A DNA stretch of 9,883 nt from a virus (IMGVR_UViG_2529292735_000024:1-9883); one strand, 5' to 3'. Positions 1 to 6,095 are shown, numbered from the stretch's first letter. A program made the numbers and translations. The notes: generated by a model from the sequence alone, not told the origin.

Positions 1-761
1 CTTTTCACGAATAACCGCCATCAGGCTGGCGTAATGCGCGTCATTGTGGATGTGCTGGCGCAGCCAGGCTTCATCATGGCGATGTTCGATAATGGTATTG
101 GCGATGTGGTGACTGGTACGCATACCGTTAGTGGCCATCACCGACAGTACGGCATCGGCCATCAGGGAAACGCCTACGTGTGGATCGCAAAACACCTGGC
201 TGATACCTGCCAGTTGCCCCTGAACCTTTGCCACATCCAGCGTGGTTCCGCCCAAATCCACAATCAGCAGGATTCAAACGGACTCATGTCAGCCAGTGCC
301 TTAAAGCCAGCCGGAATGGATTCAGGCATAACCCGCACGTTACGGATAGTGAATGCTTCGCCGTTCTGGTACTCCACCGGGCGCATAACGTTCGCTTTTT
401 TGCGGCTGATGTTGGCCATGTCCGGCTGTGCGTTTGTGTCGAAATACTCGCTCAGTGGCAGGGTGACAACCACATCCACCTCCTGTGGCGTGATGCCTGA
501 TTTGACCAGCGCGTGATGAATGGCAATGACATTCACATCGCTGTACTGGTATTGCGTGTCGGTCGTCTGGACAAAGCGATCGCTGACCGGATCAAAACCA
601 TAGCGCACGCCATCAAGCATGTAGTTCGCGGGCTGCGTGCCACCGAACGGCGCAGACCATTCCGACTTGAAGCTGTTCGGGCTGATGGCGTTGCGGCGTT
701 CGCCGTTCTCAGTCCATGCCAGCTTGATGTTGGTGGAGCCGTCGTCGATACAAATTTTCAT
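1..761 (-). pseudogene. ParM/StbA-family actin-like ATPase, apparently frameshifted, 3' end beyond window start
   Basis: ORF 264..761 (-) begins MKICIDDGSTNIKLAW and continues ...VMPESIPAGF, matching the N-terminal half of plasmid R1 ParM as I remember it. That frame stops at 264..266, but a different minus-strand frame over 1..263 translates as LLIVDLGGTTLDVAKVQGQLAGISQVFCDPHVGVSLMADAV...IIEHRHDEAWLRQHIHN with no stop, matching the next part of ParM (IIDLGGTTLDISQV...GVSL...IIIHRKD). The junction is consistent with a 1-nt loss in a short C/G run near 268..271. RBS AGGAA 7 nt upstream of the ATG at 761. Confidence 0.6.
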
Positions 762-792
762 GTCGCTTTTCCTTATGTTGATTAATTAATCG

Positions 793-828
793 TTTACGGG
801 ATTCTGAAATCCCGTTTTTGCCTGTTTT
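793..828 (+). repeat. Hairpin-containing repeat unit 1 (stem 796..803 / 808..815, then T5), terminator-like on + strand
   Basis: acgggatt-ctga-aatcccgt followed by ttttt, lying between the gene A stop (838) and the parM-like start (761). Imperfect direct repeat of 866..900. Confidence 0.5.
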
Positions 829-837
829 GTGCGCGCT

Positions 838-3678
838 TCATATATCGCTGCGCGTTTTTTGGTCATTTACGGGATTCGTGAGTCCCGTTTCTGTCTGTTT
901 TTTGTTTCCGCTGGTCAGGCCACCCCGCAGCAGGTCTGCTTTGCGGCGGGCGCGTTCAGTGGTTTCACTGATTCTCTGTGCGTGCTCTGCGTCGCGGATG
1001 GCGCGCAGCATGTCAGAAAGCACGGTAACGGGTGTTTTCATGGTGTTCTGGTCTTGCTGAAGTGTGGATGCCAGGCGTGCGGCGGCTTCAGGGTCTGATG
1101 CCCCCAGCTGTGCCAGATAGCTGGCGACTGGGTTATGGCGGATCTCCGTGCTGCTTACGCCATGATTACGGCTCAGGCGCTGCCAGAGCTGCGTGATTCG
1201 GCTGTCCGGGCGGGTATCCGGTTTGCGTACAATTTCAAATCCCTGCGGTGCAATGATGCTGCCGTCAACGTACAGACTGCCGCCCCGTAACAGGTGCTGC
1301 ATCTGTTGTTCACCGATATGCAGGCCGAGAGATTCAGCAGACTCCCGCCATTCTTTAGCGAGTAATTCGTGGTTATCAGGCAAAGGCCGCTGCTGTTTGC
1401 GGCTCTGTGTCCAGCTCTGCATTTCATCACTGCTGTTTTTTGCCTGTTTGTCACGCAGCGAACGCATCAGCGCCCGGCGTTCGTGCCGTTTCAGTGAGCG
1501 CATCCATTCGTTCACTTCAACGCCGTCAGGGAGCTGCGGCCACGGTGCTGGCCGTTCTTCCGGCTGTTCTGTCCCGTTGTTGTCCGTTTCCTGTACACGG
1601 GGACAGTTATTGCCACGAGTCCAAGGGGCGGCAGGGCCGCCCTGAAGGTCAAAACCATTTTCGCGGGCGCTGTCTTCCGCTTCCGGTTTGCGTCTTACCA
1701 GCTTCCAGTTATCCGGATGCGTGCACACACGGGAGGATTCCCCGATGAGTGGTGACCAGATCCCGTAAATCTGTACGCTCTGTTCGCCGTAATCGTTCAG
1801 CTCATCGGCGAGGTCGTAGGCGGTGCGAATCAGGTAGTCCTTGCGTGGAACAAGTACGCCGCCCTGTTTCTCTATGTAGGTGGCAAAACATCCGGCATCA
1901 GCGGCAGCGAGTACCGCATCCATTGCGTCATCCTTCAGCCGTTGCGGGCCTTCCGGGTTGCGTGCCATCTGGCTGGCAAGGCGGCGGAGTTCACGCCACA
2001 CCTGACGGGAGGGGATGCCAAAGAACTGGAACTGGCGGACCCGGTGAAGGCGCGCCCAGCCGATGGCGCGCTCCACGCTCTCGGCCATTGATTTTCCGGT
2101 TTCGTGGTCAACGCGTGGTTTGCCCGTTTTTGGGTCGATGCCATCCACGGCGCGGCTGTCCAGGTTCTTTCCGATGTAGGTGGCGATGTAGCTGGTTGGC
2201 GTGCCTTTTGAGCCGTCTACATACTCCGCCTTAAAGCGCGGAGTAATATCATCGCCCAGCTCGTGACGATCTTCCTGAATGGCAATATCGCGGGTGTGGG
2301 ACACAATGGTGTCGATTTCTTCCGGATGGGCAAAGACCATCATATGCCAGTGTACGGTGCCGTCATGGTGAGGCTCCACCGTGCGGATGCCATACCAGCG
2401 CAGGCCGTCGCGGTTCAGTTTTTTGCGGACCGCCGCAAAAAACGTGTTAACCAGATAATCGCTGGAGTCGCGCATGGTGGCCCCGTTCCATTTGGGGTTC
2501 GGATGACCGTTCTCCGTTGTTGCGTGGTATTTTGACGGGCAGGTGACAGTCAGAAACACCGCTTTGTCACCACGGGCTTCGGCCAGAAGTTCCAGCCCCT
2601 TCATGGTGGCCATCATTTCTGCCTTACGGTGAACCGGGTTACTTACTCCCGCGTAATACACTGTCTCGAGATCAATCGTGAACCCGTCTTCGTTTTCCAG
2701 CATGAAACTTTTCAGGAAATCGCGTGTTTTCTCGCGCTGTGCGCGAAACTCGCTTAACGCGTCCTGGCTCAGATAGGGTGATGTTTTTCTGGAAACCAGA
2801 CAGGCGGCGCGGAGTTGTTCTTCTCTCCACTCGCAACGTAACAGCCACAGTTTGCGTTTCCACCATTCCGCACAGGTCAGGCGAAGGATTGCGCCCGGCA
2901 GCAGCTCCGTGTCCGGTTCGTTCCTCCGGTCTTTGTCTGTTGTCAGTGCGTCATAATGTGGAGGCATGGCGTGCAGGTGTAACGCCATGCGGGCCAGCAT
3001 CTGATACGCCTTCAGCGTTACATCCATGGTCAGTTCGCCATCAGTCGCGCCAAAGCCATCGCAGAGTTTTTCGAAGGTGCTGCTGAACATCGCCGCCGTC
3101 ATGGTGGCCAGCGTCTGTATCTGGTGTTTGTTGAGCTGCGGCAGGTAAAGCAAATCGTCCAGGCGTTCGCGTCCGGCAAGGGAGCGATAACCCGGTGTCA
3201 GCCAGCGGCTGTCGGTGCGGTCCAGACGTTCGAATATTTTGCGCAGGGTTCCGCGTGCATAGCGTTCCGCCTGCCAGCTCTTTTTGCCTTTCTGACGATC
3301 GGCTTCCTGCTTCTTGCGCAGGAAAGAGAGGTGGCGGCTCAGAGGCTCTCGCAGATAAACGGGAAGCGCCTTCAGTGTGGCAAAGGCACGGGCTACCGGG
3401 TCTTGTTCTGTTGCCCGGCGCTTACTGATGATGCTCTGTGCCAGCTTTTCACGCTGTCCGGCTTCCTCAAGGGATGCCATGAGTTTTTTACCCACGGTGG
3501 ATTGTGCGAAAAAGGCTTCTTCCTTCGCTTCCTGTTCTTCCTGTGCCCTTTTGTCCGCCTCAAGGTAGTAACGGATGGCGCGTTGCAGGTCGGTTTCAGT
3601 TTCCTGCCTGCGCTCCGTAAATCTGGCCGGATCAATGGCTGGCCGTGGTTCATTCCAGCTCCATGCAAACTCACTCAT
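838..3678 (-). CDS. A: Replication initiation endonuclease, phage P2 gpA family (HUH rolling-circle initiator), about 946 aa
   Basis: Long minus-strand ORF with motifs LTVTCPSKYH, VEPHHDGTVHWHMMVF (HUH-type metal motif) and TSYIATYIGKNLD (paired catalytic Tyr), as I remember for P2 gpA. Start placed at ATG 3678 (MSEFAWSWNEPRP) because it overlaps the upstream gene's stop as ATGA; the track's start at 3705 is an in-frame alternative. Confidence 0.85.
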   Translation of the reverse strand: MSEFAWSWNEPRPAIDPARFTERRQETETDLQRAIRYYLEADKRAQEEQEAKEEAFFAQSTVGKKLMASLEEAGQREKLAQSIISKRRATEQDPVARAFATLKALPVYLREPLSRHLSFLRKKQEADRQKGKKSWQAERYARGTLRKIFERLDRTDSRWLTPGYRSLAGRERLDDLLYLPQLNKHQIQTLATMTAAMFSSTFEKLCDGFGATDGELTMDVTLKAYQMLARMALHLHAMPPHYDALTTDKDRRNEPDTELLPGAILRLTCAEWWKRKLWLLRCEWREEQLRAACLVSRKTSPYLSQDALSEFRAQREKTRDFLKSFMLENEDGFTIDLETVYYAGVSNPVHRKAEMMATMKGLELLAEARGDKAVFLTVTCPSKYHATTENGHPNPKWNGATMRDSSDYLVNTFFAAVRKKLNRDGLRWYGIRTVEPHHDGTVHWHMMVFAHPEEIDTIVSHTRDIAIQEDRHELGDDITPRFKAEYVDGSKGTPTSYIATYIGKNLDSRAVDGIDPKTGKPRVDHETGKSMAESVERAIGWARLHRVRQFQFFGIPSRQVWRELRRLASQMARNPEGPQRLKDDAMDAVLAAADAGCFATYIEKQGGVLVPRKDYLIRTAYDLADELNDYGEQSVQIYGIWSPLIGESSRVCTHPDNWKLVRRKPEAEDSARENGFDLQGGPAAPWTRGNNCPRVQETDNNGTEQPEERPAPWPQLPDGVEVNEWMRSLKRHERRALMRSLRDKQAKNSSDEMQSWTQSRKQQRPLPDNHELLAKEWRESAESLGLHIGEQQMQHLLRGGSLYVDGSIIAPQGFEIVRKPDTRPDSRITQLWQRLSRNHGVSSTEIRHNPVASYLAQLGASDPEAAARLASTLQQDQNTMKTPVTVLSDMLRAIRDAEHAQRISETTERARRKADLLRGGLTSGNKKQTETGLTNPVNDQKTRSDI
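866..900 (+). repeat. Hairpin-containing repeat unit 2 (stem 869..876 / 881..888, then T-rich tract), inside the 3' end of gene A
   Basis: tttacgggattcgtgagtcccgtttctgtctgtttt aligns to unit 1 at roughly 85% identity, about 73 bp away. Confidence 0.45.
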
Positions 3679-4064
3679 GGCTGGTATCCCATCACGCGCT
3701 GCCACTCCTGCGAGAAGAGGGTGGAAAGGCGGTTAAATTCAGCGGTGTATTCACTCAGCGAGGCACACCCGCCAGCAGTGCGATGCGCCAGCATTGCCGC
3801 GAATACGGAGGCCGGGGAGTCGTAATACGCCAGCAGTGATTCGCCGTGTGGTGTCAGGCAGTGCAACGCCAGCCCGTGTGGTGTGAAGTCCACGCGGTAG
3901 CAGTCGTCTACTGTGAAATAAAGGGTGTCCGCATTCTCCGGTTTTGTAGTGCGTGCTCTGTTGTCACGACCACGGATGTAAAGATCAAATAATCCCTGAA
4001 GAACGGGAGCCAGACGGGTGTCCTGTGTGCGCACCCATCTTGTGAAGTCATGAGCGTCAATCAT
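3675..4064 (-). CDS. Hypothetical early-operon protein (129 aa), translationally coupled to gene A
   Basis: ORF with protein-like composition; its stop overlaps the gene A start (ATGA at 3675..3678). Contains a duplicated TPHG motif encoded by an 11-bp direct repeat. No family recognised. Confidence 0.55.
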   Translation of the reverse strand: MIDAHDFTRWVRTQDTRLAPVLQGLFDLYIRGRDNRARTTKPENADTLYFTVDDCYRVDFTPHGLALHCLTPHGESLLAYYDSPASVFAAMLAHRTAGGCASLSEYTAEFNRLSTLFSQEWQRVMGYQP

Positions 4065-4136
4065 GCTGCAATTCTCTTTACTACAGATGTGCGAAGGCCT
4101 CCCGCCGCAAGGTGCAGGAAAGGCCCGGAACAGGAA

Positions 4137-4367
4137 TTAATGGAGTTTGTTTTGCTGCTGGATGAGCTGCTGAAGCTCGCGCAGATCATCCGCCAGATAG
4201 CTGAAAACAGCGGATGAGTAGAGGTTTGAAAGTTCGCAGCTACGCTCATGCAGCATATTGATGTGCATGATTTTAGCGACGCGGAATGCGCGGGAAAGTC
4301 TGCGGTTGATTTCAGTCTGGATGTGACGACGCTCCGCGATAGCGCGGTGCTGTTTGCGGTTTGCCAT
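4137..4367 (-). CDS. Hypothetical small basic protein (76 aa)
   Basis: MANRKQHRAIAERRHIQTEINRRLSRAF... is charged and helical in character. SD AGAGG sits 9 nt upstream of the ATG at 4367. Function unknown. Confidence 0.55.
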   Translation of the reverse strand: MANRKQHRAIAERRHIQTEINRRLSRAFRVAKIMHINMLHERSCELSNLYSSAVFSYLADDLRELQQLIQQQNKLH

Positions 4368-4375
4368 GATATGTG

Positions 4376-4700
4376 GCCTCTTGTAGTAAGTTGTGAAAAC
4401 TCACCATCCAGAGGTTCCAAGCTCGGGGTGGTGAGACGTACAGGGTTGGAACTACCGGCTACAAGAGATCCCGGCCCGACCGAAATCGGCCCCGTACGCC
4501 CCACCATAATTCGTGTGCGAAAAAGACGTGGCAATACAGTACGCACAAAAAAACCGCTGGCGCGGTTGTGCGCTCTTGTAGTCTGCGGGGTTCCAATCCC
4601 GGCACCCGTTTTATGAGGTGCAGCGGAAATGTAACCTGACTGATTGCGGCATGGCAAGCGGTTTTTTTGTGAGAACGGCATACTAAAAAATCCTGATGCT
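4376..4700 (-). other. Structured non-coding region between the SPFH cassette and the 76-aa gene (candidate leader or regulatory RNA)
   Basis: About 330 bp without a convincing ORF. The 9-mer ctcttgtag occurs at 4378..4386 and 4573..4581 and its complement ctacaagag at 4459..4467; ggttccaa at 4413..4420 and 4589..4596 with ttggaac at 4446..4452; A7 at 4547..4553, T7 at 4662..4668, A6 at 4685..4690. Confidence 0.4.
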
Positions 4701-4734: not shown

Positions 4735-5565
4735 TTACTTCACCGGAACAAACGGAACAGCGGTATTACTGGTCATGTATTGCGGCAGCGTGCCGTTCCA
4801 TTTGTTGATAGCTTCCAGCTCCATAACGCCGGGGTTCTGGCGCAGAGCTTCACCGCGCAAACGAATGGCGTCGGCTTCAGCCTGGGCTTTTGTGCGAATG
4901 GCATCAGCCTGTCCGGCTGCTTCTGCGCGTAGCATGTTGGCTTCTGCTTCGCGCTGCTTGACTTCCTGTTCGCGTTGCAGAGTTTTCTGGTTTGCCGTGA
5001 CTTTGGCATTAATGCTGTCGATAACGGTTGGTGGGTATTCCGGTTTACCGACATAAGAGAGGCTCATTACCTGAATGCCGATAGGTGTCATTTCTGCCTG
5101 AATGTCTTTAAGTGCTGAATCCAGCAGTTCAGACTTGCCACCGTCGATAAACTTATCGGTGGTCATTTTGCTGGCCAGTCGGTTGAGTGCATCGGCGATC
5201 TTTTGGCGCAGGTCAGTGTCGGTAATGTCATCCACGCCTTTGCGGTAGGTCTGAAACACTGTGGTAACTTTGGATGGATCAACCTTGTAGGCCACACCGA
5301 TGTGATAGCCGATGGTTGTGCCGTCACTCATCTGAAAGCTGAATGGCTCATCGTAGGTCTTCATTTGTTTGAAGGTCGGGAAGATGTAAACCTCGGTATT
5401 CCAGCCTGTCCAGTAGCGGCCAACGCCAACCACTTCACCGACGCCTTTATCGTCGCCCAGTTTGTTGACTTTGATGCCCACATTACCTGGCTCAACGCGA
5501 TCGCAACCAACCAGCAGGATGGCGGCAAAAAGCGGGATAATCTGAAAGAGTTTGAATTTCTTCAT
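4735..5565 (-). CDS. SPFH/Band-7 (stomatin/prohibitin/HflC-like) domain lipoprotein, 276 aa
   Basis: N-terminus MKKFKLFQIIPLFAAILLVGC is a signal peptide with lipobox LVGC. The body has an SPFH-like core followed by an A/E/Q/R-rich coiled-coil tail (REQEVKQREAEANMLRAEAAGQADAIRTKAQAEADAIRLRGEAL). SD AGGAA 8 nt upstream; start overlaps the upstream stop as ATGA. Confidence 0.8.
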   Translation of the reverse strand: MKKFKLFQIIPLFAAILLVGCDRVEPGNVGIKVNKLGDDKGVGEVVGVGRYWTGWNTEVYIFPTFKQMKTYDEPFSFQMSDGTTIGYHIGVAYKVDPSKVTTVFQTYRKGVDDITDTDLRQKIADALNRLASKMTTDKFIDGGKSELLDSALKDIQAEMTPIGIQVMSLSYVGKPEYPPTVIDSINAKVTANQKTLQREQEVKQREAEANMLRAEAAGQADAIRTKAQAEADAIRLRGEALRQNPGVMELEAINKWNGTLPQYMTSNTAVPFVPVK

Positions 5566-5765: not shown

Positions 5766-5980
5766 GTCGGTTGCTCTCTTTTGTTATTCAGGAAAAAGTC
5801 AAAAACGTTATCGATGCGCATCATGAGTTCGCGCTGCATCGCTTCTGGTGTTTCTGGTTCGCCAGGTGATCCAAACCCAGCGAAGAAATCACCGATCTCG
5901 CTTTGAATGAGTTCCTTTAGTGTTGGCGGGGAGCTCAGGCGTGTGCGGCGATGTCTGCGTGTAATTCTCCTTCTGTTCAT
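5762..5980 (-). CDS. Small protein with arginine-rich N-terminus (72 aa), first gene of the SPFH cassette
   Basis: MNRRRITRRHRRTRLS... followed by an acidic/hydrophobic C-terminal part. SD AGGAG 8 nt upstream of the ATG at 5980 but embedded in a hairpin. Coding status less certain than its neighbours. Confidence 0.5.
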   Translation of the reverse strand: MNRRRITRRHRRTRLSSPPTLKELIQSEIGDFFAGFGSPGEPETPEAMQRELMMRIDNVFDFFLNNKREQPT

Positions 5981-6019
5981 CCGTGTGACTCCTGTAACTG
6001 TCGGACAGGGCTCACACGG
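5981..6019 (-). promoter_or_regulatory. Stable hairpin abutting the start codon of the cassette's first gene, occluding its SD
   Basis: Outer stem ccgtgtga (5981..5988) / tcacacgg (6012..6019), inner stem cctgt (5991..5995) / acagg (6005..6009), 9-nt loop. On the minus-sense RNA the SD aggag (complement of 5989..5993) lies within the paired region. Confidence 0.45.
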
Positions 6020-6095
6020 AATGGCAGTGATTTTTGGGTAGACATTCTTTGTACGGCAGTCGTCAGTTCACGTGGTTCCTGGTGGTTGATGGTGC

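Follow-up and report, generated by a model that had tools for sequence, protein, structure and literature searches.

A frameshifted parM gene next to the replication gene A

The window, by which we mean the whole 9,883-nt stretch of DNA that was analysed (IMGVR_UViG_2529292735_000024:1-9883), begins inside an actin-like ATPase gene that is read on the minus strand in two frames. The 5' reading frame occupies positions 264..761. Translation from the ATG at 761-759 gives a 165-aa product (MKICIDDGSTNIKL...ALADMSPFESC*, also given as MKICIDDGSTNIKLAW...), which consists of ParM residues 1-164 followed by one aberrant Cys codon and the TGA at 266-264, and which spans the actin-fold subdomains Ia/Ib including the phosphate-1 motif DDGSTNIK. 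An exact-sequence look-up found this product on record as EHX87127.1, 'stbA family protein [E. coli DEC14C]'. Beyond this ORF, the -1 frame stays open down to window position 1 (ILLIVDLGGTTLDVAKV...AVIREK, also ILLIVDLGGTTLDVAKVQGQ...). The continuation (1..270, minus strand) encodes residues 165-254 of 319, opens with the phosphate-2 motif LLIVDLGGTTLD and is truncated by the contig end.

Both pieces were assigned to ParM by Pfam, as the first-pass annotation had proposed when it described a ParM-like N-terminal half at 264..761 with a ParM-like continuation in another frame. StbA_N (PF06406) matched the first piece over residues 1-157 (6.7e-83), the ParM C-terminal domain PF21523 matched the second piece, 1..270 (5.4e-39), and the joined sequence fits the two domains consecutively, end to end. 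With the missing base restored, the protein is colinear with ParM of plasmid R1 (PDB 1MWK, 5AEY, 4A62) over residues 2-245 (E 3e-78). The nucleotide-binding motifs of the two proteins are identical, with IDDGSTNIKL, VMPESIPAG and LLI(V/I)DLGGTTLD conserved, although about half of the residues differ. Of these motifs, the window encodes phosphate 1 (DDGSTNIK) in one frame and phosphate 2 (DLGGTT) in the other, and the adenosine motif (VVGGGA in relatives) falls past the contig end for the window copy. Judged by its homology to both domains and to R1 ParM, the region is an R1-type ParM/StbA gene, and the alignments gave no reason to move it to another actin-fold family. Two PHROG families, phrog_691 and phrog_2515, each labelled 'partition protein', correspond to ParM and ParR.

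The two frames are separated by the loss of one base. When the window was aligned with E. coli EA2 and phage P88, a single gap appeared, at CAGCAGGGATTC in the relatives and CAGCAGGATTC in the window; the window has GG at 270..271 and all relatives have GGG, which places the single-nucleotide discontinuity that had been noticed near 268..271. According to the gap lists, this is also the only gap against P88 in window positions 1-3357. On the coding strand the change is CCC to CC across codons Ser164/Leu165 of parM, and a stop codon two codons past the deletion ends the protein at 165 aa, whereas the relatives have 319 codons. An uninterrupted frame of ~320 codons is absent from the window copy, so that this ParM gene is, in its deposited form, a ParM pseudogene. 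The deletion lies 4-5 codons ahead of the DLGG Asp (R1 D170). Because the frameshift precedes this residue, the 165-aa product has neither the phosphate-2 motif with the Asp equivalent to R1 ParM D170 nor the adenosine motif, nor anything of the second half of the actin fold, and it cannot work as an ATPase. If the deletion is real, the DEC14C prophage is null for ParM, and the loss of translational coupling in this copy may reduce the expression of parR too.

The early arm of a P88-like prophage

Directly upstream of parM and on the same strand lies an intact P2-type replication endonuclease gene A (838..3678, minus strand; 946 aa, Pfam Phage_GPA). As had been stated from the sequence alone, parM thus stands directly downstream of gene A, in the position where P2 carries orf91/tin/old. 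Rightward from gene A, the source contig carries early genes, cox, C and the integrase gene, followed by pheA, and the Pfam families Phage_GPA, Phage_Cox and Phage_integrase were found on this contig and in its relatives. The window is 97.6% identical to P88 over positions 1-3357; 68% of it is covered at 94% identity, and it becomes mosaic further right. With P2-type int, C, cox and gene A together with this high identity to P88, the window represents the early arm of a prophage of the P88-like group (Xuanwuvirus, Peduoviridae). Its parM is the same gene as that of P88 (YP_009113060.1) and as the one that PGAP names 'plasmid segregation protein ParM' in P88-like prophages (e.g. WP_000686519.1), with 98.8-99.4% DNA identity over window positions 1-900. 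The prophage type is the same and so are the neighbours, namely gene A upstream and, in the relatives, parR downstream. The P88 protein is intact at 319 aa, whereas the window copy is one base short and is cut by the contig end.

Several observations concern the rest of the early region. The last position of the window, 9883, coincides exactly with the integrase stop codon, and pheA follows ~300 nt on along the source contig (L127, 1-879). Two RNA families scored above the Rfam gathering threshold, a C4 antisense RNA at 4424-4511 (minus strand, 79 bits) and an isrK Hfq-binding RNA at 4547-4621 (minus strand, 71 bits), both within a 206-aa 'ash family' gene that the ORF callers and PGAP place at 4061-4681. 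These matches suggest an antisense-RNA immunity or antirepressor switch of the P1/P7 type in the P2-family prophage of the window. A 276-aa SPFH/Band_7 gene (4735-5565, minus strand) belongs to the early operon; some P88-like relatives have it and others lack it. The early region is strongly mosaic, and window positions 3358-4058, 5874-6024 and 8064 onward were unmatched in P88.

parM-parR as a constant module of P88-like prophages

The parM region was found in 1304 of 5426 complete E. coli genomes (24%), and 1442 of its 1444 places there are chromosomal; 14 phage records carry it as well. A partition ATPase had been called unexpected in an integrating phage, a view that does not hold for what proves to be a fixed module of such phages. 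Insertion next to pheL/pheA was seen in all ten loci that share the integrase of the window. The idea that P88 may be a phage-plasmid has been raised earlier on the basis of its partition genes (PMC7969092). An extrachromosomal state in the lysogen was not found here, as the integrase gene runs into pheA and nearly all places are chromosomal. Integration is the rule, and an additional episomal state, in which P88-like phages would be facultative plasmids, is possible. At the same time, seven plasmid records match gene A-parM of the window at >=95%, among them NZ_CP110658.1 (119939-120939), a 272-kb Salmonella enterica 'plasmid' in PLSDB in which gene A-parM is 99.4% identical to the window. 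Either P88-like prophages integrate into large plasmids or those plasmid records are misassigned. A P88-like prophage with 92.6% identity to the window over 4.8 kb also lies on a 226-kb contig of 'Vagococcus sp. WN89Y' (NZ_JBQPOM010000071.1, L123), a GTDB species representative; with its Gram-positive genus label, this looks like a mislabelled or contaminated assembly.

The related prophages were read for an intact version of the locus. In E. coli EA2, P88 and EC21Z-048, an intact 319-aa parM is followed after 4 nt by a 103/104-aa gene of the Plasmid_stab_B (ParR/StbB) family, and the order in all three is gene A, parM, parR, variable genes and the portal gene Q. Among the full-length relatives, at least 108 of 112 encode ParM as a single ORF. 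The order gene A-parM-parR is kept in nine of the ten loci sharing the integrase, and a Plasmid_stab_B gene stands 2-5 nt after parM in every relative that was read. What follows parR differs from one relative to the next and includes Ead/Ea22, a ClpX-zinc-finger protein, RelE/ParE with an HTH protein, HicAB, a KAP NTPase and DUF3800. The cargo hotspot begins past parR, and parMR, in the orf91/tin/old position of P2, is itself constant. In the alignment of ParR proteins (A2; L001, L138-L141), the C-terminal N-x3-LFP tail and an N-terminal R-x2-SFYL-x-P strand are invariant and the middle part diverges; by analogy with ParR of R1, the tail is a likely ParM-binding peptide.

Outside the P88 cluster, the next ParM relatives in the protein collection come from Hafnia and Plesiomonas (62-63% identity), Serratia (58%) and Enterobacter (54%). 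Their P2-like prophages show the order gene A, 0-2 small genes, parM, parR, cargo, (ogr) and portal. Over 85 distinct full-length parM sequences, pN/pS was 0.084, indicating purifying selection. A search of 50,697 phage records gave a single ParM homologue beyond the P88 group, that of the P1-like phage-plasmid D6 (47.8% identity). These comparisons argue that parMR is an old, syntenic and selected module of a P2-family phage clade. P88-like prophages regularly contain the parM-parR(-parC) type II partition module, and it is already annotated in them.

With this, a further suggestion can be weighed, according to which parM was recently captured from a plasmid or is an accessory cargo or defence gene at the hotspot downstream of gene A. 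It agrees with the orf91/tin/old position of the gene and with the variable cargo hotspot that is truly present just past parR, but parM-parR stays invariant while the cargo beyond it changes, and its place beside gene A is kept across five genera, down to 54% identity. The low pN/pS (0.08) also speaks against this reading. The closest plasmid parM genes are only ~66% identical in DNA, on which ground a recent plasmid capture was rejected, and synteny in four other genera at 54-63% ParM identity contradicts the idea of a captured plasmid fragment as well. Defence models in PADLOC gave no match for ParM or ParR, and with the module invariant, a role as anti-phage defence cargo of the gene A-to-Q hotspot was rejected. 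Altogether we regard a captured or cargo gene as very unlikely, and keep to the reading of parMR as a long-standing phage module. Both the gene and the family to which it belongs, as well as its position in P88-like prophages, are known, being annotated in thousands of genomes and having PHROG families of their own. The first-pass annotation was right about the family and overstated its significance.

A candidate operator upstream of parM

The intergenic region between gene A and parM (762..837, minus strand) contains an AAGGA ribosome-binding site at 770-774 and a -10-like element, ATTAATCAA, at 778-786. Direct comparison of the sequences showed that the ATTAATCAA element is conserved in the Plesiomonas and Hafnia relatives. 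A consensus promoter scan found no sigma-70 match in 762..837, so we only infer a promoter role for this region.

The repeat finder detected two 42-nt direct repeats on the minus strand that are 81% identical and 73 nt apart. The proximal repeat (790..831) holds the palindrome ACGGGATT-N4-AATCCCGT at 796-815, 53 nt upstream of the parM ATG, and the distal repeat (863..904) holds its palindrome at 869-888, inside the 3' end of gene A. Searching the window with the relaxed motif YGGG-N10-CCCR gave two sites only, each within a 42-nt repeat, and the stricter palindrome is found only at the two corresponding places in the whole 35.8-kb P88 genome. Relative to the parM ATG, the distal and proximal palindromes lie at -126 and -53 in the window (Escherichia), at -132 and -60 in Plesiomonas (L138, 6337-6426) and at -129 and -56 in Hafnia (L139, 7872-7962). 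The pair is therefore spaced by 72-73 nt in P2-like prophages of all three genera, including Hafnia with its different upstream gene, and in each lineage it is followed by the conserved ATTAATCAA element and a ribosome-binding site. Column conservation among the P88-like copies was too uniform to reveal added constraint on the 42-nt repeats.

We predict that the palindrome pair is a candidate ParR operator or minimal parC-like centromere. The palindromes could instead be RNA hairpins on the sense strand, in line with the folding of the minus-strand RNA (z = -4.7) and with the common CCCG to CCTG variant, which retains G-U pairing. In Plesiomonas, however, only 4 bp of the stem remain around a loop of 10 nt, yet the outer CGGG/CCCG half-sites persist, and so does the 72-nt spacing. 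Because this lineage loses the inner palindrome and keeps the outer half-sites and spacing, a dimeric protein site is favoured over a hairpin. The palindromes also scored as terminator-like on the plus strand in a scan, and were rejected as terminators, since that strand is antisense to every nearby gene.

The motif was not found in the Serratia and Enterobacter relatives, where a different inverted repeat is present. The N-terminal strand of ParR reads NRKISFYL in Serratia and Enterobacter versus TRR(I/V)SFYL in the three motif-bearing lineages, a sequence difference that agrees with ParR as the binder across what are only two phylogenetic groups. R1 ParMRC likewise has repeats upstream of parM, and its centromere consists of ten 11-bp iterons. 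The candidate centromere of the window differs in having two palindromes of ~20 bp, 73 nt apart, one of them inside gene A. An IncI1 plasmid locus was discarded as a parC comparison, as it is not of the R1 type.

Origin of the one-base deletion

The deletion allele was seen in a single assembly. Among 1399 E. coli places in complete genomes, the 70-nt stretch carrying the deletion had no match at >=99%, and a 24-mer with the deletion had 0 matches in the GTDB representative genomes and 0 in IMG/VR, while an intact 25-mer, used as the control, had at least 120 matches in IMG/VR and 2 in the GTDB representatives. The exact 165-aa product is recorded once among 153 billion gene positions, on contig AIHM01000056.1 (34,368 bp) of E. 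coli DEC14C (GCA_000250455.2). The window is the first 9.9 kb of this contig, which starts inside parM ~270 nt from the deletion, and for this reason the last 65 parM codons and parR lie off the contig. The window parM has no private substitutions, and over 3.4 kb of alignment with P88 the deletion is the only indel left uncompensated.

An artefact of the DEC14C draft assembly, with a true gene that is intact and a normal parMR module in the prophage, has in our estimate an even chance of being the explanation. The deletion sits in a homopolymer (CCC to CC) of a draft assembly, ~270 nt from a contig end within parM; the allele is absent from all other sequences searched (E. coli, GTDB representatives and IMG/VR), and the window copy has no other private change in a gene that is under strong purifying selection. 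Draft assemblies often break in parM, leaving hundreds of 'partial' ParM fragments of 101-233 aa (clusters P0017 and P0010), and such breaks would be expected if near-identical prophage copies, in up to 3 places per genome, break assemblies there. Nevertheless, the assembly is not visibly error-prone in the window, because there is no second uncompensated single-base indel in the well-aligned parts of the 9.9 kb, and the reading frames of gene A, the integrase gene and the small early genes are uninterrupted. As a homopolymer, a run of three bases is weak, and most end-of-contig errors fall closer to the end than 270 nt.

To a genuine and very recent loss of function, which would be the first step in the decay of a module dispensable to the resident prophage, we give slightly less than an even chance. 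Here the clean remainder of the window counts in favour, and disrupted copies exist elsewhere: 11 nt are missing from parM in the complete genome CP018770.2; within a set of 102 copies, the gene is interrupted by a nonsense codon in L053 and by single-base indels in L037 and L021; and the record of phage 503458 shows it in four pieces. About 4 of the 112 full-length parM copies examined are disrupted. Some of these lesions may be sequencing errors too, however; the DEC14C allele is limited to one draft assembly, and the absence of accompanying substitutions suits an error just as well as a recent mutation.

A third reading takes the break for programmed -1 ribosomal frameshifting or for a slippery site with phase variation, so that full-length ParM would still be produced; it was rejected, and we give it practically no credence. 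The downstream frame is indeed the -1 frame and the change falls in a short homopolymer, but nothing else points in this direction. Between the downstream-frame TGA and the upstream-frame TGA the two frames share only ~9 nt (GAA TCC TGC TGA; GAATCCTGCTGA), and no slippery X XXY YYZ heptamer was found in this overlap; at least 108 of the 112 full-length relatives encode ParM as a single ORF, and the deletion occurs in 0 of ~1400 E. coli copies. Of the causes that had been offered at the outset, a slippery site is thereby effectively excluded, while decay and sequencing error both stand. The deletion is an isolated, private and non-programmed change, either a very recent inactivation or an error of base calling or assembly, with the balance between them roughly even. 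In the CP018770.2 prophage (L134, 2095-3043), which shares the integrase and the insertion site of the window, no gene is called at the deleted parM, and this copy is probably a genuine, independent pseudogene.

A possible role of ParMR in P88-like phages

For the intact relatives, the following mechanism is proposed. ParR, a small Plasmid_stab_B protein with the conserved N-x3-LFP tail, would bind the repeated sites upstream of parM, and its binding to the two sites is predicted to repress the promoter and to mark the DNA. Filaments of ParM-ATP with ParR-DNA complexes at their ends might then capture copies of the circular, non-integrated phage genome and push or position them. Such action would be timed after excision or infection, during the rolling-circle replication driven by gene A. 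Since parM follows gene A immediately and on the same strand, the two may be expressed together. We infer this DNA-positioning role by homology and analogy, with R1 ParMRC and AlpAC of the Corynebacterium glutamicum prophage CGP3 as the models.

AlpC/AlpA/alpS of CGP3 likewise comprise an actin-like ATPase and a DNA-binding adaptor of an integrated prophage, and the adaptor binds sites in the promoter region of its own operon (PMC4446434, PMC5539076). In that system, AlpC and AlpA connect the circular phage DNA with actin-like filaments, and efficient replication of the phage, in the form of its excised circular DNA, depends on them (PMC4446434); the actin-like protein and its adaptor are induced early (PMC4446434, PMC5539076). 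By these parallels, CGP3 AlpAC is the best functional analogue of P88-like ParMR that the comparison offers, although AlpC belongs to a different actin-like subfamily, the phage is an unrelated one of Gram-positive bacteria and the gene order is reversed (alpA-alpC).

Taken together, a P88-like parM with a private, non-programmed lesion, in a module that probably works in the manner of R1 ParMRC and CGP3 AlpAC, is a reading that we hold with high confidence. The more specific proposal is that in this integrating P2-family clade parMR is a selected part of the life cycle which uses a two-site minimal centromere and positions or segregates the circular genome or allows a facultative plasmid state; this we put forward tentatively, as something that may well be so but that we rate just below an even chance. 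The DEC14C frameshift is a one-off in a single draft assembly and carries little weight for the window itself. The broader point is that an integrating P2-type phage whose ParMR is conserved and under purifying selection is present in a quarter of E. coli genomes, and to this the window contributes a possible natural null allele and a comparative hint of a two-site centromere or operator. If the proposal is true, an actin-like positioning step is missing from the textbook model of P2, and the DEC14C allele, if real, is its natural null.

The known systems closest to this module differ from it in the state of the element. The adaptor encoded downstream of parM in the relatives of the window shares its Pfam family with StbB/ParR of R1, but R1 is a plasmid, whereas the element in the window is an integrating P2-family phage. 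The P1-like D6 has an StbA-type partition protein too and is kept as a plasmid, whereas the P88-like elements are integrated.
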